Shown piece by piece: positions 1-12,274 of a DNA stretch of 12,729 nt. The stretch comes from an uncultured bacterium. Its GTDB lineage: Bacteria > Hydrothermota > UBA3073 > NMUJ01. Made by a program: the position numbers and the translations under genes. The stretch is taken from contig CBFDTI010000035.1 of NCBI GenBank assembly GCA_965612795.1, forward strand, positions 1 to 12,729, in the 5' to 3' direction. The first letter of the stretch is position 1. Each line of letters begins with the position of its first letter. A model generated the notes under the pieces. It did not search any database. It saw only the letters and a list, made by a program, of their open reading frames with translations, and had not been told where the DNA came from.

Positions 1-1
1 A

Positions 2-67
2 TTAGACTGCGCATTTAAATACCATACTTATCTGCCGATAACTTGGACGGTCGGCGTACGATGGTAA
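2..67 (+). CDS. 3' end of an upstream gene (partial, starts before the window); probable outer-membrane beta-barrel protein C-terminus
   Basis: Frame +2 is open from the window edge: LDCAFKYHTYLPITWTVGVRW* (TAA 65-67). Alternating hydrophobic residues and a terminal Trp fit the last two strands of an outer-membrane barrel (the 'DYA...h..L..t...v.F/W' pattern of PorV/FadL-like proteins). The stop overlaps the next ATG (ATGGTAA, 61-67). Not in the ORF track. Confidence 0.65.
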   Translation, partial: LDCAFKYHTYLPITWTVGVRW

Positions 68-2358
68 TCCTGCTATCCATACTAATTGCTATCAACTTAA
101 ACACCGATAGTTTGTATAAACTCGAGCAACTACCTTTAAGTGAGCCCGAAATTCAAGCAATATACCTATATAGGCTTAAACATGGATACTTTCGTAGCTT
201 CTACGAACTTACAAAAATATTACCCATTGAGTCAGTTAACAAGATACGTTACCTGGTGAAGTTGACACCACCACCTTATAGACGTGAAACCAGCGATTAT
301 TATGAGTATCTACAGGAGAGGCTTACTCGTGAGGAAGGGCCACGTGCAGGTGCTGTAGAAGAGTGGCTCTGGTATCTTGGGCATCCGCTTAACATAAATC
401 GCGCAGATGTTAAGGATATTGCAATGTTCGATGGTGTAAGTTTAGTGGATGCCGCTAGTATTGTAAGATATCGTCAGCTATATGGTGAGATATCATATCA
501 AGGTGCACTCCGTGATATACCAGGGTTATCATACTGGGGGTACAGGAATCTCAGAAATTTTGTAACCTTTGAAGACAAACCCCTACATGGGACAGAAGGT
601 TACCTAAAGATCGACTGGCGTACTATCTATTACGTGAGGGGCAATATATTGGGCGACCTCTATGGTAGGCCTACCTATCTTAAATACAGGGAGGAAGACC
701 TTATAGCAGCTGGATGGACAAAAGACGAAATCGAGCACCTCATATCGCAACTATATCGTGAAAAGGAAGATTACCTACGTGAGGGTACATATCGGGGATG
801 GGACTGGCGGTTACGGATGGGTATAACCCCACATATATATCTGGGAATTAGGAAATTCAATAAGGGTTATATCGAACTACGATCGATAGGCCCATTACGT
901 AAAATGTACATCGGTACGTACAGGGTGACATGGGGGCAAGGTATACTACTCGATAACAGTGACGAGATACGCGCAAGATTACACACGCGTCCAGAAGGGT
1001 TATTCGGTGACCTCACTTATTACGAACATTTCTATCTACAAGGGGTGGCAGCTGAACTCACATTTAACCGCATACATCCTACTGTACTATGGTCGTATGT
1101 ACCAAGGAATGCAATACTTAACCCTGACAGTTCGGTGAACTACCTGATACATATCTATCCGGTGCTACCCGCATTCCGCCATAACGTGAAGGAACGAATG
1201 ATTGGGGTTAACCTCTCCGTAGATATGGGTGGTCTATACAATCTACCCGTAGGTACATACGTAGGGGTTAGTCTACTCGATCTGCTTTACTCGAGGCCAT
1301 TTAATCCGGATCCCAAATACCTCGATATACCCTGGGATAAGGAGGTGATCGACGATCCTAACTACCTCTTATCAAGTCGTGGTCGGCATCGTAGCTTCGT
1401 AGGTGCACATCTTTCTACGGTGGTGAGTAATATGAGTTTAGAATTCGACTATGCGCAGCAGCAGCATGCCGGTCATGCATATATTGTGAAGCTCCACTTA
1501 CAGTATGAAACACTTTATGGGATCCTGGTTTTGCGGCACTACGATGTGGATTATGATAACCCATACTCACGTGGGTTTGCCGAACGTAGGCGGTTTGGTG
1601 AAGGTATATGGCAACGTTCGTATCGGTTGATAGACCCACTTTATGTCTATATTTCCGAATATCCCGTACCGAGGGCAGAGGAGGGTATATACCTGGAGTT
1701 CAGATACCAACCATCACATAGGTTGATAATATCACGTTTTTATATAGATGTATGGAAGGATCTCGCGTATGGGTTACCTAACTGGCGCACACAGGCGACA
1801 TTACAGTATCGGCCAGCTTTCCCATTGCGTATATATCTAAGGCAGAAGCTGCAGGCTAAATCACACAAACGGCTGGCTACCACTACAGTGTCGCACCTAT
1901 GGGAGACATCGCTCACAATCGAATATAGGTTAAACAATTACAACAACCTACGTACTGAATTACGTTATGCGAGGGTATCATTCCCTTCATTACCAAGATA
2001 TGAGACAGCCAACACAATAACGGGAGGGTTTCTCGCACTCACCTATCGGTATAATTTATCACCACATATGTCGATACTGGGTGGATATGCGATATGGCAG
2101 ACACAGGGGTTATCACAGTGGATATTCGAGGATGTGGGTATAGACTTCCTTGAGGGTAGGGGCTGGAAATATTACTTGGTGCTATCAGATAGATTATCAC
2201 ATAACCTGTTATTTAGGTTAAAATTCAGGTATAAGTTGAGCGAGTTTCCACATACTGGGATGTTGGGTGCGCATTTAGAGGATGGTACACCAATTTACGA
2301 GTTTATCGATACCAGACGTGAATTTGGTGGCAACTTACTTTTGATAATATGGTGGTAG
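61..2358 (+). CDS. ComEA-like helix-hairpin-helix DNA-binding domain protein with large C-terminal outer-membrane beta-barrel
   Basis: ATG61 preferred over TTG43 because it is coupled to the upstream stop and begins a hydrophobic leader MVILLSILIA. Two ComEA/HhH_3-like modules: INLNTDSLYKLEQLPLSEPEIQAIYLYRLKHGYFRSFYEL (nt ~91-258) and PLNINRADVKDIAMFDGVSLVDAASIVRYRQLYGEISYQGALRDIPGLS (nt ~385-564). The rest is Tyr/Trp-rich with many amphipathic strands and ends in ...GGNLLLIIWW (terminal aromatic). Confidence 0.8.
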   Translation: MVILLSILIAINLNTDSLYKLEQLPLSEPEIQAIYLYRLKHGYFRSFYELTKILPIESVNKIRYLVKLTPPPYRRETSDYYEYLQERLTREEGPRAGAVEEWLWYLGHPLNINRADVKDIAMFDGVSLVDAASIVRYRQLYGEISYQGALRDIPGLSYWGYRNLRNFVTFEDKPLHGTEGYLKIDWRTIYYVRGNILGDLYGRPTYLKYREEDLIAAGWTKDEIEHLISQLYREKEDYLREGTYRGWDWRLRMGITPHIYLGIRKFNKGYIELRSIGPLRKMYIGTYRVTWGQGILLDNSDEIRARLHTRPEGLFGDLTYYEHFYLQGVAAELTFNRIHPTVLWSYVPRNAILNPDSSVNYLIHIYPVLPAFRHNVKERMIGVNLSVDMGGLYNLPVGTYVGVSLLDLLYSRPFNPDPKYLDIPWDKEVIDDPNYLLSSRGRHRSFVGAHLSTVVSNMSLEFDYAQQQHAGHAYIVKLHLQYETLYGILVLRHYDVDYDNPYSRGFAERRRFGEGIWQRSYRLIDPLYVYISEYPVPRAEEGIYLEFRYQPSHRLIISRFYIDVWKDLAYGLPNWRTQATLQYRPAFPLRIYLRQKLQAKSHKRLATTTVSHLWETSLTIEYRLNNYNNLRTELRYARVSFPSLPRYETANTITGGFLALTYRYNLSPHMSILGGYAIWQTQGLSQWIFEDVGIDFLEGRGWKYYLVLSDRLSHNLLFRLKFRYKLSEFPHTGMLGAHLEDGTPIYEFIDTRREFGGNLLLIIWW

Positions 2359-2362
2359 GAGG
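2357..2362 (+). promoter_or_regulatory. Shine-Dalgarno site (AGGAGG) overlapping the stop codon of the HhH-barrel gene
   Basis: TAG at 2356-2358 runs into AGGAGG at 2357-2362; ATG at 2367. Confidence 0.8.
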
Positions 2363-2366
2363 CTAT

Positions 2367-3461
2367 ATGAGGAAATTTTTGTGTATCCTCAGTTTTGCAG
2401 TAATCCCCCTGTATGGATATACACTACATGAGATAGCAACCGGTGGCTATCCATTATCTACGTTTGATGGTAGAAATGTTGGGTTAGGCTACACATGTAT
2501 AGTTGTGACGAATGCAACCAACCCCGCATGTTTTGATTCAACCTCTATGTTTGCCGTCAACCTACAACTCCATCAGATCACTGAAGAGCGTAAAGCCAAG
2601 GTATACAATGAGTTCGAAGACTATGTGGGTGAAGCTACACGTGCGATACGTGACGAGTTACACGCCGTCCCTATGCCATTAGGTATAAATCTCTATAAAC
2701 ATGGTATGTCGTTCACCTTAAAAATATTCCCTAAATATGTGTTTGACTATGAGTTTAACTTCCCAATATACGATGACTATTATCTTGTAAGGGGATGGCA
2801 AATCGAATCCTCAACCGGTATGGTTATATCGTATTCAACAATGTTAGGTGTACGAGTATGGCCAACCTTGTACGTGGGTATAGGTGGCAGTTATTTAAAA
2901 GGGGATTGGCAACGTGCAAAGGTGTGGCGTCCCTTATATGAAGGTAGTGAGCCATGGGATACATCAACAAGCGGCAAACTTCAAGGCATAAACTTTACAT
3001 TCGGTATATGCATCAAACCTTCTTTCAGGTGGACCATCGGCGGTATATGGGAGATATCTACACTTAAAGATACACTGTTCGATTATCCTCAATTCACGTA
3101 TGGAGTAGGTATCGGATATCGACCAGCAAATATTTTACCTGCATATTTTGTAGCTGAGGTGTTAGCTCACCAAGGTAAACATCGTGAATGGGAATACCAC
3201 ATGGGTGTGGAGCACGAGCTTACACCTTCATTTTTGTTGCGAGCTGGCTTCGCATGGCTATCAGCAGCTAAGGATGAACGTTTATCAAAAGGAATTTACA
3301 CTGCAGGTATCGGCTATAAGGGTGCATTATGTGAGATCGACGTAGGGATAAGCTTCTGGTGTCGCAAATACAGTACATACCTTGTGGATGTAGAAGGGTT
3401 CGACAAAATCGACGAAAGTATGTTTAGTGCCATCTTTACGATCAAAAAGGAGCTACCATGA
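2367..3461 (+). CDS. Outer-membrane beta-barrel protein, FadL/OmpP1/PorV-like
   Basis: Start moved to ATG2367 (SD upstream). Signal peptide MRKFLCILSFAVIPLYG. N-terminal DGRNVGLGYTCIVVTNATNPACF resembles the 'R..gmG.a.......NPA' hatch motif of FadL/PorV-like barrels. C-terminal strands YHMGVEHELTPSFLLRAGFAW...YTAGIGYKG...IDVGISF. Confidence 0.7.
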   Translation: MRKFLCILSFAVIPLYGYTLHEIATGGYPLSTFDGRNVGLGYTCIVVTNATNPACFDSTSMFAVNLQLHQITEERKAKVYNEFEDYVGEATRAIRDELHAVPMPLGINLYKHGMSFTLKIFPKYVFDYEFNFPIYDDYYLVRGWQIESSTGMVISYSTMLGVRVWPTLYVGIGGSYLKGDWQRAKVWRPLYEGSEPWDTSTSGKLQGINFTFGICIKPSFRWTIGGIWEISTLKDTLFDYPQFTYGVGIGYRPANILPAYFVAEVLAHQGKHREWEYHMGVEHELTPSFLLRAGFAWLSAAKDERLSKGIYTAGIGYKGALCEIDVGISFWCRKYSTYLVDVEGFDKIDESMFSAIFTIKKELP

Positions 3462-4018
3462 AACGCATATTTGTAGCAATTATCGTGATAATAGCAAGCA
3501 CGGAGGCGATGGGCTTGCCCGCGGATGAGGTTGAAGTTACATTCAATCGCGACTATGCGAGACGGTTAATCGAGGAGATATACAATGCAGATAGTGTTGT
3601 ACATATAATAATGTTCAGTGCAGGTTATTACCCACAATATCCGCGTGGAATTAATGATTCACTGTATGACGCACTTGCGTATATAAATAGACAGGGTGTG
3701 GAGGTCAAGATCATATTCGATCAATCAGACTGGAACCCCAGTGTTACCCGTAAAAATGTAGAAGTAGCTAAATATCTTCATGAACTAGGTATAACCGAGG
3801 TGTATTTCGATCCCCCCGATGTCACTACACACTCGAAGGTCGTTATAATTGATGGTAGAATAGTATTTGTAGGTTCACATAACTGGACATATTACGCATT
3901 GCAAAGGAATAATGAAAGTACGGTGATGATCGTATCACGTGAGGTTGCAAGGGTATTCGAACAGTACTTTGACCAACTTCTGAGAATGTCGACCAAAACA
4001 TTTCCTACACTAAGATGA
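3458..4018 (+). CDS. Exported phospholipase D-superfamily nuclease (single HKD, Nuc-like endonuclease)
   Basis: Signal peptide MKRIFVAIIVIIASTEAMG. One HxKxxxxDxxxxxxGSxN motif, HSKVVIIDGRIVFVGSHN (nt 3830-3883), followed by the Nuc-type Glu in RNNES. QGVEVKIIFD motif present. 186 aa fits a homodimeric single-domain PLD. ATGA overlap with the previous gene. Confidence 0.82.
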   Translation: MKRIFVAIIVIIASTEAMGLPADEVEVTFNRDYARRLIEEIYNADSVVHIIMFSAGYYPQYPRGINDSLYDALAYINRQGVEVKIIFDQSDWNPSVTRKNVEVAKYLHELGITEVYFDPPDVTTHSKVVIIDGRIVFVGSHNWTYYALQRNNESTVMIVSREVARVFEQYFDQLLRMSTKTFPTLR

Positions 4019-4839
4019 CGGTACTGATAATAGGGTTGATTTTTGTTACTGAGAAACTCGTCATCTTATATACCAATGATATAGCGGAGGTTACATATCC
4101 ACGTCCTGCTACATGGATAAATCCAAACTTTCCACCCGAACTTGGTGGCCTTCCATCACTGAAATACCTATTGTCGGTAGAACGCCAGAAGGCACAGAAA
4201 GACGGCTACCCATTGTTGCTCCTAGATGCAGGTAATTTCAGTGCACCCGGTAGATATGGCGAACCACCACGTATGATGTTGAGGATGTTTGGTGAGCTTA
4301 ATTACGATGTTGTAAATATTGGAGTATATGACCTACCATGGATAGCGTATTTGCCAGATAGCATTACATTTATATCAGCAAACGTAGAGGGCTACAACAA
4401 ACCATATGTGATCTTGGAGAAAGATGGTATCACGATAGGTGTAGTAGGTGTAGTGACCCAGTACTTAGCACCCGCATTAGCTTGGGAGTATGCAACCAAG
4501 ATTAAAGTACATAACCCCATAGAGAGTGTAAGTCGTGTGCTGGACCACATACGCGATAGAGTTGATGTGCTTATTGTATTGTCATCACTTGGGTTCGACA
4601 ACGATGTGAAACTGGTCGAACAGGTAAGAGGTATCGATATACTTGTGGGTGGCTACGAAGGGCGTGGCTTACATGAGCCGTTTGAAGATAGTCTGTCACA
4701 TACAATTATAGTACGTACATATGGGGAATTGTCAGAAGTCGGCAAACTAGTGATATATTTTGACGAAGATCACAATATTGTAGGGTATGATGGTACAACC
4801 CTTACCTTATTTCGTGAGGCCTATCCAGGGGTTAAATGA
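4015..4839 (+). CDS. 5'-nucleotidase/UshA N-terminal (calcineurin-like metallophosphoesterase) fold protein with degenerate active site; no C-terminal domain
   Basis: Fold motifs in the correct order: ILYTND, LLLDAG, LNYDVVNIG, FISANV, KPYVILEKDGITIGVVGVVT, VDVLIVLSSLG...DVKL...GIDILVGG, GELSEVGKLVI. Metal and catalytic residues are substituted (see findings). ATGA overlap with the nuclease gene. Confidence 0.8.
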   Translation: MTVLIIGLIFVTEKLVILYTNDIAEVTYPRPATWINPNFPPELGGLPSLKYLLSVERQKAQKDGYPLLLLDAGNFSAPGRYGEPPRMMLRMFGELNYDVVNIGVYDLPWIAYLPDSITFISANVEGYNKPYVILEKDGITIGVVGVVTQYLAPALAWEYATKIKVHNPIESVSRVLDHIRDRVDVLIVLSSLGFDNDVKLVEQVRGIDILVGGYEGRGLHEPFEDSLSHTIIVRTYGELSEVGKLVIYFDEDHNIVGYDGTTLTLFREAYPGVK

Positions 4840-6093
4840 TCATGTACCCCATTCCCATGAACTGAGGTATTGTTGCTGTTCGGGTGTGAGCTTGTCAATC
4901 TTAACCCCCATCACCTCAAGTTTACGTATCGCTATATCGCGGTCGATCTCGTCCGGCAGTTTATACACCTTCTTCTCTAGCTTATCTCCATGTTTTACAA
5001 GATATTCAACTGCACGCGCTTGGTTGGCAAAACTCATGTCCATAACCTCAGCGGGATGACCTTCGGCGGCTGAAAGATTCACTAACCTACCTTCAGCCAA
5101 CAAGTATATTCTTTTATTACCCAAATGGTAGCAATCAACCATGGGTTTGATGCTTTCTACTTTATCTGCCAGTTCATGCAACTTCTGTATGTTGATTTCA
5201 ACATCAAAATGTCCCGCATTCGCAAGTATTACACCATCTTTGGCAAATTTGAAATGTTCAACATCTACGACATTGATATCGCCAGTAGCTGTTACAACGA
5301 TATCGGCCACCTTTATTGCATCACGCATGGGCATCACCGTGAAGCCATCCATCACAGCTTCAAGTGCACGTATAGGGTTGGTTTCAGTAACTATCACATG
5401 GCCACCCATACCCCTTGCACGCCAGGCGATACCCCTACCACACCATCCATAACCGGCAACCACAAACGTCTTACCTGCCAATAATACATTTGTTGCACGC
5501 ATGATGGCATCTATGGTACTTTGCCCCGTACCGTAGCGGTTGTCGAATAGATATTTGGTATAGGAGTCATTAACCGCGATGACGGGATAACCAAGTACAC
5601 CTTTGGTGGCCATCTGTTTCAATCTCACAACACCGGTGGTTGTCTCTTCAGTACCTCCTATGACGTTAGGAATAAGATCGCGTCGCTCTTTATGTAACGT
5701 AGATATGAGGTCGGCACCATCGTCCATGGTTATGTGTGGCTCAATATCAAGCGCTTGGTTTATGTGTTTGTAATAAGTTTCACGATCCTCACCTTTAATC
5801 GCAAATACTGGTATACCATACTCAGCGACAAGTGCAGCCGCCACATCATCCTGAGTAGATAGGGGGTTGGATGCGGTGAGTCTTACTTCTGCCCCCCCTT
5901 CTTTTAGGGTTAAAATAAGGTTGGCCGTTTCTGTTGTCACATGTAGACACGCTGCCACCCTTATACCCTTAAGGGGTTGTGATTTGGCGAACTCCTTACG
6001 TATGGTTTGCAATACCGGCATACGAGTAGTAGCCCATTCTATTCGTTTGATACCGTTGCCACTCAACCTCAAATCCTTTATATCGTATTCCAT
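4840..6093 (-). CDS. ahcY: Adenosylhomocysteinase (S-adenosyl-L-homocysteine hydrolase)
   Basis: Signature motifs [54 protein letters not shown]-binding [17 protein letters not shown] and [22 protein letters not shown]. 417 aa. Confidence 0.98.
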
Positions 6094-6096
6094 TTT

Positions 6097-6103
6097 ACCT
6101 CCT
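6097..6103 (-). promoter_or_regulatory. Shine-Dalgarno site for ahcY (AGGAGGT on minus strand)
   Basis: Plus-strand ACCTCCT at 6097-6103, just upstream of the ahcY ATG (CAT 6091-6093). Confidence 0.8.
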
Positions 6104-6223
6104 CTTTAGACTCAGCCAGTTTAAGATACGTCATAAATCGAGTTGAAAAGAGGTATTAAGTGACTACAGGGAAAGGCACTCCTACGTATCACCTAAGAGT
6201 TATAACTGAAGCGGTGTCTATGG

Positions 6224-6252
6224 TTGATTAATGTAATTAATGGATATATTTT
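6224..6252 (+). promoter_or_regulatory. Possible sigma70-type promoter for the DUF3857 operon
   Basis: TTGATT (6224-6229), 17 nt spacer, TATTTT (6247-6252), in the AT-rich part of the divergent intergenic region. Match to consensus only. Confidence 0.3.
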
Positions 6253-6260
6253 AGACGCAT

Positions 6261-6267
6261 AAGGAGG
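6261..6267 (+). promoter_or_regulatory. Shine-Dalgarno site (AAGGAGG)
   Basis: AAGGAGG at 6261-6267; ATG at 6272. Confidence 0.8.
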
Positions 6268-6271
6268 CAAA

Positions 6272-8176
6272 ATGCGTAAGTGTCTGCTAGTAGCTATAGG
6301 GGTGATAGTCACTGGATGTGTAACTTATAGGGTTAACTATGCACCGTTGTTGAATACAATAACAACCGAACAATATAAAGATGCGAATGCAGTTATAGTA
6401 TTCGATTCACTAAAATATTATGTGGAACGTGACGGTAAATGTAAGTCGTATCATCATAGGTTGGTTAAAATATTCACCACCACAGGTAAGAGCGAGTTTG
6501 CCGAACCTGTGTTCTACTACTACGAAACCTATAGCAAGCTGAAGGTTAAACTTGCAAGAGTGATAAAATCAGATGGTCGTGTGGTGAAAGTACCAAAAGA
6601 AAATATCAAAGAATTTCCGATGCCAGCATGGGAAGGGTCGAAGTTCTTTTTACCCAACGTATATGTTGTAAAAATCGTATACCCAGCACTCGAAACAGGT
6701 GATGCTATCGAATATATTGTCGAAGAGAACATATATAATCCGCCCATGGATTCGAATTTCGACCTGTTTTGTATGTTTGAAGAGAACGAACCCGTACGTG
6801 AGAAAGTAGTAATTATCGACCTACCGGTAGATATGCCGGTTAAGTGGAAGGTTAAAAACGGTAGACTTGAAATTGATAGTCTCATAAAGCGGGATAGGAT
6901 AACATATGTGTTTCATAAGGAGGATATACCCAAGATTGTAAGGGAACCCCTTATGCCGCCAATACGGGAGATAGCACTAAAGTTGTTGGTGACTACGGTG
7001 CCATCGTTTGAGGTATGGTCCAGCTGGTACTATAAGCTGGCGAGTAAAAACTTCGTGGTGGATAGCAGCTTAAGGGCCAAAATACATGAACTTACGGATA
7101 CACTGGAGAGTTTGGATGCAAAGATACGTGCACTGTTTCTGTTCGTAAGTAATAACATACGGTACGTGGAGACTAAGCTAACTGGTAAGAAAGGCGGTTA
7201 CGAGCCTGCACCTGCCACGGTTACGTTTAATCGCAAATATGGAGTATGCCGTGACAAAGCGGCATTGTTAGTTACCATGTTACGTGAGATAGGCGTAGAC
7301 GCATATATAGTACTGTGTAATCCCACAATGCGTATAGATCAAGATATTGCAGTGGATGAGTTCAACCACGCAGTAGTCGCCATTAAAAAGGACGGTGGAT
7401 ACGAATTCCTCGACCCTACTGTAGAGAATACCACCGAATACCTTCTGGCTTATGAAGAAGGTAAGCAGATGCTGGTGTGTGACGAAGATGGCGAGCCATT
7501 ACGTACAATACCATACTCAAAACCTGACAAACACGCACTGAAGGTGACCCTCCAGATGGAGATAGATACATCATGCTCCGTGATAGGGAGGCTTCACTTT
7601 AGTACGAAAGGATTTTACGATTGGGTATTCCGTAATATGTTCAAGAAGATGCCGGTTGAGTTTAGGCGCCAGCTGTTTCAACAAATGGTGACAGAGTTGG
7701 GCCCAAATGCGGTACTTGATAGTTTCTCGATGACGGAACTGGATAACTTTGACGAAAATGTGCGGTTCACATTATACTATCACATGAGTGAATTTGGCGT
7801 AAAATACGGTAATGAGTATAGGTTTAAGCTGGGTGGCAGCGGTGGATTCCAACTTGGTGGTAATCCGTTTGCGCTTGAGGAACGCCATTACCCTTTGTTT
7901 ATGCATACAGTGATGCAGACAGAAAGTAAGGCGGTTGTTAAACTACCTGAGGGGTATAGAGTTAAACATCTACCCGAGGATATGCAACTGGATAGCGAGC
8001 AACTCGAGAGTTACGTAAAATATGAGGTTGTGGGTGATACAATCTTTGTGACCAGCTATTCATGTGTGAAAGATCCCTTCATACCGGTAACGGTATACCC
8101 TGAAATTAAACGCAAATTTGACAAATTGCAACAATTAGCACAACAGGACATAGTTTTGGAGAGGAAGAAATTTTAA
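6272..8176 (+). CDS. DUF3857 + transglutaminase-like cysteine protease domain lipoprotein (probable C-terminal DUF3858-like domain)
   Basis: Lipoprotein signal MRKCLLVAIGVIVTG|C16. DUF3857-like N-terminal region (HRLVKIFT..G..EFA; ARVIKSDGRVV; IVYPALETGDAIEY). Transglutaminase-like triad YGVC326RDKA / FNH366AVV / FLD381PT is intact. Confidence 0.85.
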   Translation: MRKCLLVAIGVIVTGCVTYRVNYAPLLNTITTEQYKDANAVIVFDSLKYYVERDGKCKSYHHRLVKIFTTTGKSEFAEPVFYYYETYSKLKVKLARVIKSDGRVVKVPKENIKEFPMPAWEGSKFFLPNVYVVKIVYPALETGDAIEYIVEENIYNPPMDSNFDLFCMFEENEPVREKVVIIDLPVDMPVKWKVKNGRLEIDSLIKRDRITYVFHKEDIPKIVREPLMPPIREIALKLLVTTVPSFEVWSSWYYKLASKNFVVDSSLRAKIHELTDTLESLDAKIRALFLFVSNNIRYVETKLTGKKGGYEPAPATVTFNRKYGVCRDKAALLVTMLREIGVDAYIVLCNPTMRIDQDIAVDEFNHAVVAIKKDGGYEFLDPTVENTTEYLLAYEEGKQMLVCDEDGEPLRTIPYSKPDKHALKVTLQMEIDTSCSVIGRLHFSTKGFYDWVFRNMFKKMPVEFRRQLFQQMVTELGPNAVLDSFSMTELDNFDENVRFTLYYHMSEFGVKYGNEYRFKLGGSGGFQLGGNPFALEERHYPLFMHTVMQTESKAVVKLPEGYRVKHLPEDMQLDSEQLESYVKYEVVGDTIFVTSYSCVKDPFIPVTVYPEIKRKFDKLQQLAQQDIVLERKKF

Positions 8177-8235: not shown

Positions 8236-9945
8236 ATGTGGATGTGGATGATACTTCTGGTGACAGCTGATGCAAAAATACTATTGGATAGCACGTATGT
8301 TAAGTTAGATGGAAATGGAATACGAACGTATCGTCATTATAAGATTGAGATATTGACTGAACGTGGCCGTGATACATACGGCGATGTGAAGGTACGTTAC
8401 AACAAGGACGAGTATGAGTTCAATATCATACGAGCGGTAACAATATTGCCGGACGGTAGGGAAGTGGAACCTGAACCAAAAGCGATCGCTGATGTAAGCC
8501 CACCTGAAGTATACAATGCGCCGATGTATGCGAATCTAAGAATGAAGGTGGTAACCTTTCCAGCGCTTAAACCTGGTGCAATAATCGACTACGAATATGA
8601 AATTGTACCTAAGAAGCGACCAAAGGAGCGACCTAAACTCTACGGTGATGTGGTGTTTAGTGAATACGAACCTATTAAGAAGAAGGTTTTTGTGCTGGAG
8701 ATACCAAAAGATATAACGTTGCATTATAACTTGAAGCCCAAAGTGTATGAGAACAGTGACCATACAATTTATGTGTGGGGATACGAAAATATTCGCAGGA
8801 TAAAGCGTGAACCCTACAGCCCATCATTAAGAGAGATAGGCCCTACACTCTACTACAGTGAATTCAGCGGTTGGGAAGAACTAGGTGATTGGCTACGTGA
8901 CCAGCTTAAGGCCAAAGGTAAGCCACCCCAATTGAGTTACAACAATATAGACGAACTTGTGGAGTATATAAAAACTGGTATCCGGACAGTACCTATAAGT
9001 TTGGAGTGGACGGGATTCAAACCTAATCCCGCAACTAAGGTATATGCGAATAAATATGCTGATAGCAAAGATAAGGTAGCACTATTTACGACATTGGTGG
9101 ATAATGCATATCCGGTGTTGGTGGCACCTTCATTGTTTAGCCTAGATGTCAAGATAGCTACACCTAGTATATTTGCTAAGATGATAGTTGCAATTGCGGA
9201 TGAGCATGGCTTAAGATTTGAGGATCTGGTGGATGAGTTTGGAGATGTGGGTTATACAAGATATGAAGGATACATGGGGTTTGTGGTTGCCTCAGATAGT
9301 GTGTATTTTGTGACAATAGAAAATAGAGTAAAGAATCACGAAAAGCTAACATTTGATGGAGTAATCGATACAAACGGGACACTTACCGGGGAGTTCAATG
9401 GCCATTTCATAGGCCGTACAGCGGCAGACCTACGGCATGCGTTACGTGGCAAATCAGCAACTGAATTACGTAACTGGTTTGAACAACGAGTTGCAGGTAT
9501 AAAGCCTGGATGTAAACTCATGGGATATGAGATTGATGGATTGGACACACTTCTAGGAGGGATAACCATAAGAATAGAGGTGGAATGTCCAAATTACTAC
9601 ATTGAAAATAGTAGCATCACTATACCGGCGAAAATACTCGGTATAGATGTAGGTAGATATTTCCAACTATCAAAAAGAAGTAACCGGCTCACTATATACG
9701 AAGGAAATAAGTGGGAATATACTGTAACACTTAATATGGAAGGGTTTACCCCCACGTACCTGCCAGAGAAGACAGTAGCTACTAGGGCCTTCGAAGGTAA
9801 GATCAGAAGTGAAGTTAAAGATGGTACCATAATATGGCAGGAAGAAGGGTATATCAAACGCTGTATGCTATGTCCATGTAAGTATCCACAAATACGAGAA
9901 GAAGTGACCTCATTCTTATTAAATAAGTGGCGTATGGTTATGTAA
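8236..9945 (+). CDS. DUF3857 + degenerate transglutaminase-like domain protein, paralogue of the upstream gene
   Basis: Same architecture: IEILTERGRDTYGDV; AVTILPDGREV; VVTFPALKPGAIIDYEY; FKPNPATKVYANKYADSKDKVAL. The triad positions read S277/K315/D330. Short hydrophobic leader. Confidence 0.8.
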   Translation: MWMWMILLVTADAKILLDSTYVKLDGNGIRTYRHYKIEILTERGRDTYGDVKVRYNKDEYEFNIIRAVTILPDGREVEPEPKAIADVSPPEVYNAPMYANLRMKVVTFPALKPGAIIDYEYEIVPKKRPKERPKLYGDVVFSEYEPIKKKVFVLEIPKDITLHYNLKPKVYENSDHTIYVWGYENIRRIKREPYSPSLREIGPTLYYSEFSGWEELGDWLRDQLKAKGKPPQLSYNNIDELVEYIKTGIRTVPISLEWTGFKPNPATKVYANKYADSKDKVALFTTLVDNAYPVLVAPSLFSLDVKIATPSIFAKMIVAIADEHGLRFEDLVDEFGDVGYTRYEGYMGFVVASDSVYFVTIENRVKNHEKLTFDGVIDTNGTLTGEFNGHFIGRTAADLRHALRGKSATELRNWFEQRVAGIKPGCKLMGYEIDGLDTLLGGITIRIEVECPNYYIENSSITIPAKILGIDVGRYFQLSKRSNRLTIYEGNKWEYTVTLNMEGFTPTYLPEKTVATRAFEGKIRSEVKDGTIIWQEEGYIKRCMLCPCKYPQIREEVTSFLLNKWRMVM

Positions 9946-9946
9946 A

Positions 9947-9953
9947 GGGAGGT
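9947..9953 (+). promoter_or_regulatory. Shine-Dalgarno site (GGGAGGT)
   Basis: GGGAGGT at 9947-9953 places the start at ATG9958 rather than GTG9952. Confidence 0.7.
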
Positions 9954-9957
9954 GAAG

Positions 9958-11208
9958 ATGGGTCTTACATTGGCTGAGAAAATATTGAGCGAGAAAGTTG
10001 GCCACACCGTAAAAGCTGGCGATATAGTAGTGACACCGGTCGATGTGGCTGCAGCACAGGATGGGACAGGGCCACTTGCGGCAAGACAGATAGAGGAACT
10101 CACCAAACAGCTGAATATTGATAAACTGCGTGCTCCTGAGGTGATATTCTTTATAGACCATGCTGCCCCAAGTCCACGTAAGGAGCTATCGAATGACCAT
10201 AAATACTTAAGGGAGTTTACAAAAAAATATGGCGTGAAACTATCAGATGTAGGTGAAGGTGTAATACATCAGCGGTTGGTGGAGGAGTTTGTGAAACCCG
10301 GTGATGTGGTGGTGGGTGCGGATTCACATACGACGACGTCGGGTGCATTGTGTGCATTCGCTACCGGTATGGGTTCAACCGATGTGGCGGTAGCTATGAC
10401 GTTGGGTAAGACTTGGCTTAAGGTGCCAGAGAGCTTTAAAGTTATATACAAAGGTAAGATGCCGCCAAACGTCTACTCGAAAGACATTATGTTATACTTT
10501 ATAGGGATGATAGGGGCGGATGGCGCTACATATAAGGCGTTAGAGTTTGGAGGTCCTGTCATTGAGCAGATGCCCATGGAGGAACGGTTTGTGTTGAGCA
10601 ATATGGCAGTAGAGGCAGGTGCTAAGGTGGGCCTCATTGCATCAGACAATAAGACACGTGAATACCTTGAAATGCAAGGTAGGGGAGATGAATGGCGTCC
10701 TATAGCAGCAGATGATGATGCCGAATATGAGAAAATAATAGAGATAGATGTATCGGAACTTGAACCCCAGGTAGCATTCCCACATAGGGTGGATAACGTG
10801 CATCCGGTCTCTGAAGCTAAGGGTATAAAGGTAGACCAGGTGTATATAGGTACATGTACTAATGGAAGGGTGGAAGACTTAAGAGTAGCAGCTAAGATAC
10901 TCGAAGGTAATAAGGTACACCCAGATGTAAGGCTGATCGTTGTACCAGCATCTAGGAGAGTATTTCTACAAGCACTTAAGGAAGGGTTGATCGAAATATT
11001 CGTTAAAGCAGGTGCAACAGTATTGGGCCCCGGTTGTGGGCCATGTGTTGGTGTACATGAAGGAGTATTGGCAAACGGTGAGGTATGCCTATCATCGCAG
11101 AACCGTAACTTCAAAGGCAGGATGGGCAACCCCGACGGTTTCATATATCTGGCGTCACCCGCGGTATGCGCGGCGTCGGCGATTAAGGGCGAAATAACTG
11201 CACCATAG
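9958..11208 (+). CDS. leuC: 3-isopropylmalate dehydratase / homoaconitase family large subunit (LeuC/HacA/DmdA type, [4Fe-4S])
   Basis: MGLTLAEKIL start; QDGTGP, FIDHAAP, GEGVIHQ, GADSHTTTSGA, GMGSTD, SNMAVEAGAK; three cluster cysteines in IGTCTNGR and GPGCGPCVG; SQNRNFKGRMG; YLASPAVCAASAIKG. About 416 aa, the short archaeal-like type. Substrate (leucine vs lysine or other) cannot be fixed from sequence alone. Confidence 0.88.
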   Translation: MGLTLAEKILSEKVGHTVKAGDIVVTPVDVAAAQDGTGPLAARQIEELTKQLNIDKLRAPEVIFFIDHAAPSPRKELSNDHKYLREFTKKYGVKLSDVGEGVIHQRLVEEFVKPGDVVVGADSHTTTSGALCAFATGMGSTDVAVAMTLGKTWLKVPESFKVIYKGKMPPNVYSKDIMLYFIGMIGADGATYKALEFGGPVIEQMPMEERFVLSNMAVEAGAKVGLIASDNKTREYLEMQGRGDEWRPIAADDDAEYEKIIEIDVSELEPQVAFPHRVDNVHPVSEAKGIKVDQVYIGTCTNGRVEDLRVAAKILEGNKVHPDVRLIVVPASRRVFLQALKEGLIEIFVKAGATVLGPGCGPCVGVHEGVLANGEVCLSSQNRNFKGRMGNPDGFIYLASPAVCAASAIKGEITAP

Positions 11209-11209
11209 T

Positions 11210-12274
11210 ATGAACGTATATGAGATTGTAGAATGGCTTAGTTATTATGGTGATGTGAGGGAATGGTCGGAAGAGGAAGGTGTAATCAAGGTCTCATATG
11301 TACCACGTATATCAACGAGGGAACTATTTCGTAACATAAGGAATCAACTTGTAGGTTATACACCACTCCTGAGAAAAGGTACCTATCCAAGGGAAGTAGT
11401 ACTATATCTGGTACCACGTCCCAAATATATTGAGGCAACCTCGTACCGGTTGAATATCCTGTTGTTGATAGCGACACTATTTACGACGATGCTGGCAGGT
11501 GCGATACTGGCGGGGGTGGACCCGTTCCGTAATCCCGCAAATATATTGAAAGGGCTACCGTTTTCATTAGCCATAATGTTTATACTGGGGTCGCATGAGT
11601 TGGGTCACTACATCATGTGCAGAAGGCTCGGAGTAGAGGCCACATTACCGTTTTTTATACCTGTACCACCACCATTTATTCTGGGTACGTTTGGTGCTGT
11701 CATAAGGATACGTAGCCCCATACCCGACAAGTCTGCACTGATGAAAATAGGGGTGATGGGCCCACTTGTGGGTTTCATTGTATCTATACCCATAATCCTG
11801 GTAGGGTTGAAGTTATCCACGTTGACGGTGATAATACCAGAAGAGATGCCATACTTTAAACTGGGACGCTCGATACTGTTTTCAGTGTTGGTAAACCTGT
11901 TGTATGGTGAATTACCAGAGAATTACTCATTACTATTGCATCCGGTGGCGTTTGCGGGTTGGGTTGGCCTATTTATCACAGCGCTTAACCTGTTACCTAT
12001 AGGGCAGTTCGACGGCGGGCATATAAGTTATGCGATGTTTGGTGAGAAATATCATCCCAAGGTTATGATGGCTATGTTTGTGATACTGATGGGGTTGGGC
12101 TTTCTTTGGCCGGGTTACTTTTTGTGGGCATTCCTTGGCATTATAGTGGGGTTCAAACATCCAAAGCCACTCGATAGCGTAACACCGTTGACCTCACAAG
12201 ATAAAGTATTAGGCATAGTTGCATTAGTCATGCTAATACTGACGTTTGTGCCACGTCCGTTTGCAATTAGATGA
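11210..12274 (+). CDS. Site-2 protease family (peptidase M50) intramembrane zinc metalloprotease
   Basis: HELGH zinc motif (H129, nt 11594), LPFFIP...LGTFGAVIRI, GPLVGF, LHPVAFAGWVGLFITALNLLPIGQFDGGHI (NLLP-x3-DG motif), several transmembrane helices and a short soluble N-terminal domain. Confidence 0.93.
   Translation: MNVYEIVEWLSYYGDVREWSEEEGVIKVSYVPRISTRELFRNIRNQLVGYTPLLRKGTYPREVVLYLVPRPKYIEATSYRLNILLLIATLFTTMLAGAILAGVDPFRNPANILKGLPFSLAIMFILGSHELGHYIMCRRLGVEATLPFFIPVPPPFILGTFGAVIRIRSPIPDKSALMKIGVMGPLVGFIVSIPIILVGLKLSTLTVIIPEEMPYFKLGRSILFSVLVNLLYGELPENYSLLLHPVAFAGWVGLFITALNLLPIGQFDGGHISYAMFGEKYHPKVMMAMFVILMGLGFLWPGYFLWAFLGIIVGFKHPKPLDSVTPLTSQDKVLGIVALVMLILTFVPRPFAIR

Follow-up and report, generated by a model that had tools for sequence, protein, structure and literature searches.

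A candidate envelope cassette for the capture and breakdown of extracellular nucleic acids, centred on a helix-hairpin-helix barrel protein, in uncultured Hydrothermota

Analysis of a 12,729-nucleotide window of DNA from an uncultured bacterium of the phylum Hydrothermota, comprising the first 12,729 bases of contig CBFDTI010000035.1 (C35) of assembly GCA_965612795.1 (genome 1.42 Mb, 128 contigs, 99.5% complete), revealed five co-oriented genes at the contig edge. We regard these genes as probably the distal five of a six-gene envelope cassette for the capture, import and breakdown of extracellular nucleic acids, that is, a locus resembling a polysaccharide utilization locus (PUL) and serving for DNA. 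The genes are referred to as g0 to g5 and encode, in order, a surface protein (g0), a PorV/PorQ-family barrel (g1), a barrel fused to helix-hairpin-helix (HhH) modules (g2), a second barrel of the FadL/PorV fold (g3), a phospholipase D (PLD) family protein (g4) and a UshA-like protein (g5). The directly observed basis consists of gene content, gene order, folds at the level of models, the HhH-barrel fusion, an enzyme swap between lineages and purifying selection. A function in nucleic-acid processing is suggested by four independent linked domains, namely HHH_3, PLDc_2 with its HKD motif, a UshA-like domain and DUF5689 together with an ExeM/NucH N-terminal domain, and by conservation of the gene order across 80 loci from several candidate phyla. 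The domain assignments of an initial annotation made from the nucleotide sequence (barrel, HhH-barrel, barrel, Nuc-type PLD and nucleotidase-like pseudoenzyme) were all found to be right by profile searches or modeling.

A match to g2 is present in 18 of 41 sampled genomes of the phylum, including this one. A scan of one genome per species returned 214 g2 relatives, and all cassette counts are based on the best 80 loci. Hidden Markov models (HMMs) were built from the open reading frames (ORFs) of these loci, and denominators represent loci with enough flanking DNA. The 80 loci, from metagenome-assembled genomes (MAGs), carry the labels WOR-3, TA06, Edwardsbacteria, Fermentibacteria/Aegiribacteria/Hyd24-12, Cloacimonadota, Latescibacterota and UBP2, with one Gemmatimonadetes and one Bacteroidales representative. 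Absence of conserved synteny had been named beforehand as one finding that would refute the proposed reading, and the order proved to be conserved: g1 lies directly before g2 in 63 of 66 loci, g3 directly after g2 in 61 of 71, and a UshA-like gene follows g3 in 49 of 61. One locus counted as lacking g1 (L038) encodes it about 750 bases upstream, past the distance limit. A g0 of the OB-fold type precedes g1 in 34 of 53 loci, a count taken from an N-terminal HMM alone because the full-length model catches unrelated type IX secretion system (T9SS) cargo via its tail. PLD genes were identified in 9 of the 80 loci, all nine among the 61 with room for g5.

The g2 protein carries ComEA-type modules and an outer-membrane barrel in a single polypeptide. 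Residues 109-169 match Pfam HHH_3 (42.1 bits, E 9.5e-11, cut-off 27), a ComEA-type domain, and weak matches to ComEA models cover residues 10-56 (TIGR01259) and 107-156, at scores below the ComEA family cut-offs (26.3 vs 152 for TIGR01259 and 28.4 vs 53.1 for TIGR00426). In the AF2 model, generated from 38 homologues (predicted local distance difference test, pLDDT, 83.7; predicted TM-score 0.81), two helical HhH modules take up the region as far as residue 170 or so; a single strand, a helical insert (residues 194-241) and a barrel reaching the C-terminus come after them. DSSP assigns 26 strand elements to the barrel, of which a few are very short, and the barrel is predicted to have about 24 strands and no TonB plug. 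In a Pfam scan at E 5, no family covered the barrel and no Plug, CarboxypepD_reg or TonB_dep_Rec match was obtained, with HHH_3 the only domain found. The best VIA match is the barrel of the usher FimD (3ohn_B, Z 16.8, root-mean-square deviation (rmsd) 5.3, 362 residues aligned), followed by PapC (Z 16.2), MtrB (Z 15.0) and TonB-dependent receptors (Z 13-15), with porins close; Foldseek against the PDB gave a top E-value of 8e-9 and TM-scores of 0.27-0.32. Both searches thus return generic large barrels and single out no specific structural relative. Membership among the chaperone-usher ushers (FimD/PapC) was not adopted, as only the barrel superposes and the Pfam scan gave no usher match in g2. 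Among polar, presumably lumen-facing strand residues, lysine and arginine outnumber aspartate and glutamate by 34 to 18 in a rough register count that is indicative only, a balance in favor of a nucleic-acid conduit.

The g2 sequence is 96% identical in a congeneric (sister) genome and 35-41% identical across the phylum. An exhaustive profile search yielded 205 cluster representatives at E 1e-30 or better. HHH_3 was detected in 39 of 41 representatives chosen from 150 listed, one of which adds TPR repeats, the other two having no Pfam match; fusion of HhH modules to the barrel is therefore the rule in this family.

The contig edge interrupts g1, and the upstream region, which the initial annotation had proposed to retrieve, turned out to encode a DUF5689/ExeM-N OB-fold surface protein, g0, just beyond it. 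In the sister genome the block runs on upstream with a g1 of 270 amino acids (aa), preceded by a g0 of 642 aa, so that the order is g0, g1, g2; 19 of the 21 g1 residues in the window match the C-terminus of the 270-aa protein. In the genome under study, residues 1-471 of g0, together with the genes upstream of g0, are located at the start of another contig (C37), pointing outward. The two contigs should therefore abut over a gap of about 1.26 kb if the genomes are collinear, a gap that would contain the final 171 codons of g0 and the initial 249 of g1. DUF5689 was detected in both g0 proteins (53.4 bits in the sister genome and 34.8 in this one, cut-off 28.6). The sister g0 also aligns with the N-terminal portion of the model for ExeM/NucH extracellular nucleases and ends in a T9SS sorting/FlgD-Ig type domain of about 100 residues. 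Further upstream in the sister genome are genes for a YfiM-like lipoprotein, CoaX, McsB/McsA-like proteins, an ABC ATPase and the T9SS sortase PorU. DUF5689 marks the DNA-binding partner in experimentally studied Bacteroidota DNA-uptake loci (10.1101/2025.03.18.642099, PMC8459023).

Orthologues of g0 range from 344 to about 1250 aa and contain DUF5689, OB folds, Big_5 and lamin-tail domains followed by the same conserved tail. The tails match FlgD_ig, Por_Secre_tail or CHU_C, some above the cut-off (e.g., 36.5 vs 27), and share the pattern PNPF...GxY...K..VVGT. With SprA above its cut-off and PorU just under (394.6 vs 420 bits), the genome encodes a T9SS, and g0, with its sorting domain, qualifies as T9SS type A cargo. 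PorQ-PorZ and PorV-PorU are T9SS barrel/cargo pairings. The 270-aa g1 was modeled in complex with the 110 C-terminal residues of g0, using an alignment of 26 orthologues per chain; the prediction scored 0.91 in all three runs, compared with 0.00 for the best of three controls. In calibration, a score this high was seen for 116 of 157 complexes of solved structure and for 2 of 215 mismatched pairs, counts that apply roughly here because our own alignments were used. Contact agreement between runs was at least 91% and partner pLDDT at least 84. Residues 257-261 of g1, which lie inside the tail encoded in the window, contact the C-terminal domain of g0 in the predicted complex. The g0 tail is thus predicted to dock on g1 as on a PorV/PorQ-type anchor, in place of the channel function originally proposed for this first barrel.

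The second barrel, g3, is a paralogue of g1 (hhalign probability 98.4%, E 5.5e-15). Its AF2 model (pLDDT 87.8) adopts the 14-strand FadL/PorV fold, which extends to g1 by homology. VIA returned FadL 1t16 (Z 31.6, rmsd 3.0, 316 residues aligned), the FadL-like subunits of three Bacteroidota β-barrel assembly machinery (BAM) complexes (Z 31-32), TodX (Z 27.9) and PorV 6h3i_F (Z 25.7). At the sequence level, the PorV_fam scores of sister g1 (38.7 bits) and g3 (20.4) fall below the cut-off of 90. The genome contains 11 PorV_fam matches, nine of them over the cut-off. On four contigs, a PorV paralogue and one of the eight TonB-dependent receptors are no more than a few kb apart (C3, C4, C40 and C41 are among the PorV contigs), and all eight receptors lie away from the cassette. 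A starch-type locus on contig C3 (C3:33195-46312) encodes a CarboxypepD_reg/Plug receptor, a 1107-aa protein, a PorV paralogue, a CBM20 protein and an α-amylase, the last two with T9SS tails, and represents a PUL without SusD-type lipoproteins. This locus indicates that the organism makes polymer-utilization loci from a transporter and T9SS-displayed proteins on PorV paralogues, which favors the nucleic-acid reading of the cassette; by analogy, the cassette would follow the same grammar with g2 in the place of the transporter.

The same analogy lends itself to an alternative, in which the cassette is a T9SS-linked display and uptake system for another polyanion or polymer, such as RNA, polyphosphate or a glycan, with structural or non-DNA-binding HhH and OB folds. 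The organism does use T9SS-tailed proteins with a PorV paralogue for starch, the CBM20 protein carries a weak DUF5689-like stretch, and HhH-like folds occur outside DNA contexts, as the weak T2SSK and PsbU matches illustrate. We nevertheless judge this alternative unlikely: four separate domain families converge on nucleic acids or nucleotides, HHH_3 is found in nearly all g2 representatives chosen, and g0 orthologues repeatedly carry the ExeM/NucH N-terminal domain, the lamin-tail domain and OB folds. An RNA substrate would be a variant of nucleic-acid uptake and not a rival to it.

The PLD protein g4 matches PLDc_2 with 86.2 bits and has an intact HxK(x)4D(x)6GSxN motif, and the HKD motif is kept in all 15 PLD proteins of the cassette family, g4 included. 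Weak matches to NucT and DrmC were obtained, the best NucT score being 39.3 bits against a cut-off of 211 and thus below the equivalog level. The nearest solved chains, all at modest E-values, are the phospholipase 7e0m, MitoPLD/Zucchini, Nuc (1byr) and NucT (6ehi). Like Nuc of the Salmonella plasmid pKM101 and NucT of Helicobacter pylori, g4 has one HKD domain, some 160 residues long and with the motif intact, that follows a signal peptide. In sequence it is only distantly similar to them (E 6e-6 and 3e-4) and stays under the equivalog thresholds for NucT. Since MitoPLD/Zucchini and 7e0m score as well as or better than Nuc and NucT, g4 is referred to here as a putative Nuc/NucT-like nuclease.

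At 274 aa, g5 aligns to positions 22-269 of the 519-position UshA-like profile, the C-terminal substrate-binding domain being gone. All five metallophosphoesterase motifs are replaced, reading DIAE / GN / GVYD / S / GYEG in place of the DIHG / GD / GNHDF / H / GxHSH of its relatives. Two forms of the cassette can be distinguished on this basis. In 40 of the 49 loci with g5, the protein is long (at least 480 aa, mostly 500-545 aa), no PLD gene is present (0 of 40) and most sequences possess all metallophosphoesterase motifs, which are partly lost in L040, L050 and L065. Three long g5 proteins that were scanned have their best matches to UshA and multifunctional nucleotidase models, consistent with nucleic-acid breakdown. 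The remaining nine loci, including the one in the window, contain either a single PLD gene or two in the interval from g3 to g5, and in all nine the g5 product is short (274-308 aa), without the C-terminal domain and with lost metal ligands. The combination of a PLD with a dead nucleotidase, as first described for the window, represents a minority variant (9 of 80 loci), the common form having an intact 5'-nucleotidase and no PLD.

Comparison with the sister genome gave dN/dS values of 0.058 for g2, 0.145 for g3, 0.127 for g4 and 0.112 for g5, and 0.07-0.12 for three neighboring genes. Values of 0.06-0.15 in all four cassette genes show that these are real genes under selection, and the value of 0.11 for g5 speaks against decay of the short form and for its retention as a pseudoenzyme. 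Without metal ligands, g5 probably serves as a binding or scaffold subunit. The alternation of an active 5'-nucleotidase with a PLD plus a kept dead nucleotidase is a clean natural case of enzyme replacement with a retained pseudoenzyme.

Additional enzymes are found downstream of g5 in some loci. In 13 of the 80, a CehA/McbA (PHP-type) metallohydrolase homologue with a T9SS tail directly follows a long g5, the family match having been scanned in two of the 13 (L053:14021-16113 and L052:14216-16443), and at least six of these 13 loci encode a second PorV-like barrel after the PHP gene. The metallohydrolase and second barrel could possibly form a surface nuclease module. Three WOR-3 loci without g0 encode a protein of about 540 aa directly after g5 (L047:13986-15608, L070:14087-15709, L041:14003-15634), followed by a 388-aa protein. 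In L047, the one scanned, the first is RecJ-like (DHH/DHHA1/RecJ_OB) and the second an RlmI-type methyltransferase.

The route that we infer from these components, with DNA as the substrate and an open pore as the way in, would begin with export of g0 by the T9SS. Displayed on the surface, g0 would bind DNA through two DUF5689/ExeM-type OB-fold modules while its C-terminal sorting domain is predicted to stay docked on the PorV/PorQ-type barrel g1. DNA would then pass through g2, a barrel of about 24 strands lacking a TonB plug, whose N-terminal ComEA-type HhH modules, periplasmic by the usual barrel topology, may bind the incoming strand and bias its movement inward in a ratchet-like manner. 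A ratchet model for ComEA has been presented for Vibrio cholerae (PMC3879209). In the periplasm, the Nuc-like PLD g4 would cut the DNA. In most lineages an active UshA-type 5'-nucleotidase would then free nucleosides and phosphate. In the lineage studied here, g5, lacking catalytic residues and the C-terminal domain and kept by selection, is probably a binding or scaffold subunit at this step. The second FadL-fold barrel, g3, could anchor another partner or act as a small-molecule channel.

Two systems in print resemble the cassette closely, so that it is not without precedent. In Bacteroides thetaiotaomicron, ddbABCDEF is needed to deplete exogenous DNA (Sharan et al., 10.1101/2025.03.18.642099). 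Its genes specify three nucleases, DdbC (a TonB-dependent transporter), DdbD (a DUF5689 protein) and DdbE; DdbD was modeled as a p202-like dsDNA binder on DdbC, and both are related to Riemerella genes (10.1101/2025.03.18.642099). Riemerella transformation requires RA0C_RS04920 (DUF5689), RA0C_RS04915 (barrel) and RA0C_RS02645 (HhH), together with ComEC, DprA, ComF and RecA (Huang et al. 2021, PMC8459023). In both cases a DUF5689 protein beside a barrel, DdbD or RA0C_RS04920, is thus required, for DNA depletion or for transformation (10.1101/2025.03.18.642099, PMC8459023).

Like the cassette, the ddb locus is PUL-like, with a surface DUF5689 protein near an outer-membrane transporter and exported hydrolases, one of its nucleases being periplasmic with a signal peptidase I (SPI) leader. 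The cassette shares the DUF5689 protein near a transporter through g0 and lacks a DdbC-like TonB-dependent transporter, as g2 is not TonB-dependent, gives HHH_3 as its sole match and has the HhH modules fused to it. The surface protein is predicted to be T9SS cargo on a PorV-like barrel, whereas ddb uses a lipoprotein; the hydrolases are a PLD and a UshA-like protein, and two extra FadL-fold barrels are present. The Riemerella system likewise combines a surface protein with DUF5689, a barrel in the outer membrane and HhH modules, and ComEC is encoded in the genome too. Its HhH protein, however, stands alone, with a predicted location in the periplasm, and its barrel is of the TonB-receptor type, in contrast to the cassette, where HhH modules and barrel form a single polypeptide. 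By description alone, the HhH region of RA0C_RS02645 lies at residues 236-301 (PMC8459023), while that of g2 and of its Bacteroidota relatives discussed below is N-terminal. ComEA shares with g2 the HHH_3-type modules and a proposed role in periplasmic binding of incoming DNA; it is small, soluble or membrane-anchored and works with a secretin and a pilus, whereas g2 has two modules fused to a barrel of about 590 residues. The resemblance of g1 and g3 to PorV/PorQ lies in the weak PorV_fam match and predicted sorting-domain partner of g1 and in the fold of g3; g1 differs in being shorter, under the family cut-offs and dedicated to one operon partner. The cassette is a variation on ddb/Riemerella-type systems and not a member of the ddb family: an HhH-fused plugless barrel replaces the TonB transporter, and T9SS/PorV anchoring replaces lipoproteins. 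The initial claim that no characterized system has this exact composition holds insofar as no prior description of the HhH-barrel fusion or of a g0-g5 cassette was found in the literature searched, judged by titles and abstracts, and needs qualification given these close functional analogues.

We think that nutrient scavenging is a likelier end use than feeding transformation because the nucleotidase is conserved. The corresponding alternative, a pilus-independent entry for natural transformation in which g0 catches dsDNA, g2 passes it to the periplasm, PLD or ComEC processes it and ComEC imports a strand for recombination, is in our view improbable. Its precedent is Riemerella, where transformation depends on ComEC together with a surface DUF5689 protein, a barrel and a protein with HhH modules (PMC8459023), and this genome does contain ComEC. 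The most conserved enzyme of the cassette is, however, a 5'-nucleotidase (the long form in 40 of 49 g5 loci), with a PLD or PHP hydrolase elsewhere, enzymes that would destroy and not preserve DNA. No secretin or ComEC gene lies in the window, as first reported. Elsewhere, however, the genome has comEC, on another contig, two secretin matches and a 141-aa ComEA-like ORF (C5:20781-21203), so that a classical route is available and the cassette is not needed to explain competence. The idea that it replaces missing competence genes was rejected on the same grounds. It is very improbable that the cassette merely holds extracellular DNA for adhesion, biofilm matrix or DNA export without import, since, although a surface OB-fold protein with DNA-binding modules could tether matrix DNA, hydrolases with SPI-type leaders (no T9SS tail, no lipobox) and a large barrel fit import followed by degradation better.

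Homology of g2 extends well beyond the cassette. [quoted passage not shown] At least 3,688 proteins at E 0.001 or better belong to it among the candidates scored, with names including Prevotellaceae, Hoylesella and Prevotella. Alignment of the two families by hhalign (probability 99.75%, E 2.5e-27, 537 columns) spans HhH module 1 and the whole barrel, the Bacteroidota form having one HhH module and no helical insert. No Pfam model covers the barrel of this family, and no characterization of it was found in the literature searched. A shared cassette was considered for the Bacteroidota homologue and rejected: none of 80 metagenome loci (L150-L229) gave a hit for g0, g1 or g4; one locus has a g5-like gene, in the opposite orientation, and two have a g3-like gene at a distance, none of them adjacent. 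Gene sizes around the homologue differ among the four loci viewed. The genome under study also encodes a shorter, 578-aa HhH-barrel paralogue (C18:9073-10809) whose neighbors seem, by sequence, unrelated to DNA uptake, and a second HhH-barrel copy is present in two other cassette-bearing MAGs.

Several observations weigh against the proposed function in nucleic-acid capture and import. An OB-type g0 next to g1 is absent from 19 of 53 loci, and the Bacteroidota homologues occur outside any such cassette. The DUF5689 fold is not specific to DNA, given the sub-threshold DUF5689-like stretch (23.6 vs 28.6 bits) in the CBM20 starch-binding protein of the C3 locus. Because complexes of T9SS cargo with PorV have been solved (PMC10994853), the successful prediction for g1 and the g0 tail may echo known structures. 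The g2 barrel has no specific structural relative (TM-score at most 0.32, VIA Z at most 16.8), and its first HhH hairpin lacks, by comparison with the consensus, the GIG-type glycines in this genome. The organism was also considered as a nucleotide auxotroph, which was rejected as PurH and PyrF are present; there is thus no obligate need for nucleotides. A Bmp-type nucleoside-binding protein was not found with PF02608 in this 99.5% complete genome.

Five plus-strand ORFs fill positions 2-4839 of the window (Table 1). Their arrangement, as initially described, was confirmed: g1 and g2 meet in ATGGTAA at 61-67, g2 and g3 are joined at 2356-2369 by TAG, the Shine-Dalgarno-type GGAGG and the ATG at 2367, and ATGA overlaps link g3 to g4 (3458-3461) and g4 to g5 (4015-4018). 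For g3, the ATG at 2367 is most likely the start, favored over that at 2349. Export leaders had been assigned to all four complete genes; judged by eye, they are clear in g3 and g4, whereas those of g2 and g5 are short and weakly charged, with hydrophobic leaders in the orthologues of both. A consensus scan of positions 1-6400 gave no excess over shuffled sequences of promoter-like (12 vs 18.9 expected) or terminator-like (5 vs 3.3) elements.

Table 1 Positions of cassette genes and their parts in the window.
Feature	Positions	Strand	Basis and remarks
g1, C-terminal tail of PorV/PorQ-family outer-membrane barrel	2..67	+	21 codons, ends ...RW*; rest beyond contig edge
g2, HhH-barrel protein, 765 aa	61..2358	+	Alternative TTG start at 43
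g2 HhH module 1, ~residues 10-65	88..255	+	Weak TIGR01259 match; model helices 18-62
g2 HhH module 2, ~residues 107-170	379..570	+	Pfam HHH_3
g2 large β-barrel, residues 179-765	595..2355	+	DSSP on AF2 model
g3, FadL/PorV-fold 14-strand-type barrel, g1 paralogue	2367..3461	+	Model and hhalign; ATG 2349 also open
g4, single-HKD PLD-family protein with leader, putative Nuc/NucT-like nuclease	3458..4018	+	PLDc_2
g4 HKD catalytic motif, residues 125-142	3830..3883	+	Regular-expression match
g5, truncated UshA-like protein, N-domain only, metal ligands gone	4015..4839	+	Profile match, motif alignment

The stop codons of g5 (plus strand) and the convergent ahcY (minus strand, its stop codon starting at 4840) abut at 4837-4842 with zero bases between them, which leaves no space for a terminator. 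Further into the window, tandem DUF3857 paralogues of about 24% identity (6272-8176 and 8236-9945), both kept in the sister genome, differ in that the first has a transglutaminase-like core and a lipoprotein-like leader and the second gave no transglutaminase match. A single base separates the gene for a HacA/LeuC-type aconitase-family large subunit (9952-11208) from that for a membrane peptidase of the M50 (site-2 protease-like) type (11210-12274), located where the usual small subunit would be expected.

In sediments and guts, much phosphorus, nitrogen and carbon is stored as extracellular DNA, which also supplies the raw material for transformation. To our knowledge, the only described means by which DNA crosses the outer membrane are secretin/pilus machines and, since very recently, TonB-dependent transporters of the Ddb type. 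The cassette suggests a further solution to this problem that works without TonB energy and is spread over several uncultured phyla of the FCB group. More tentatively, and with more doubt than belief, we hypothesize that the HhH-barrel adds a third type to these two outer-membrane routes for DNA, namely a pore of about 24 strands that is independent of TonB, has a fused ComEA-like ratchet and receives DNA from an OB-fold receptor displayed by the T9SS and anchored to its own PorV-like barrel, and that its stand-alone Bacteroidota homologues are an unrecognized DNA-uptake component. If true, thousands of Bacteroidota proteins, including those of Prevotella, would constitute such a component in the gut and oral cavity. 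The homology of g2 to this very large Prevotella/Bacteroidota family is clear and full-length, and some carriers of the family may be open to genetics, which would make the hypothesis testable.

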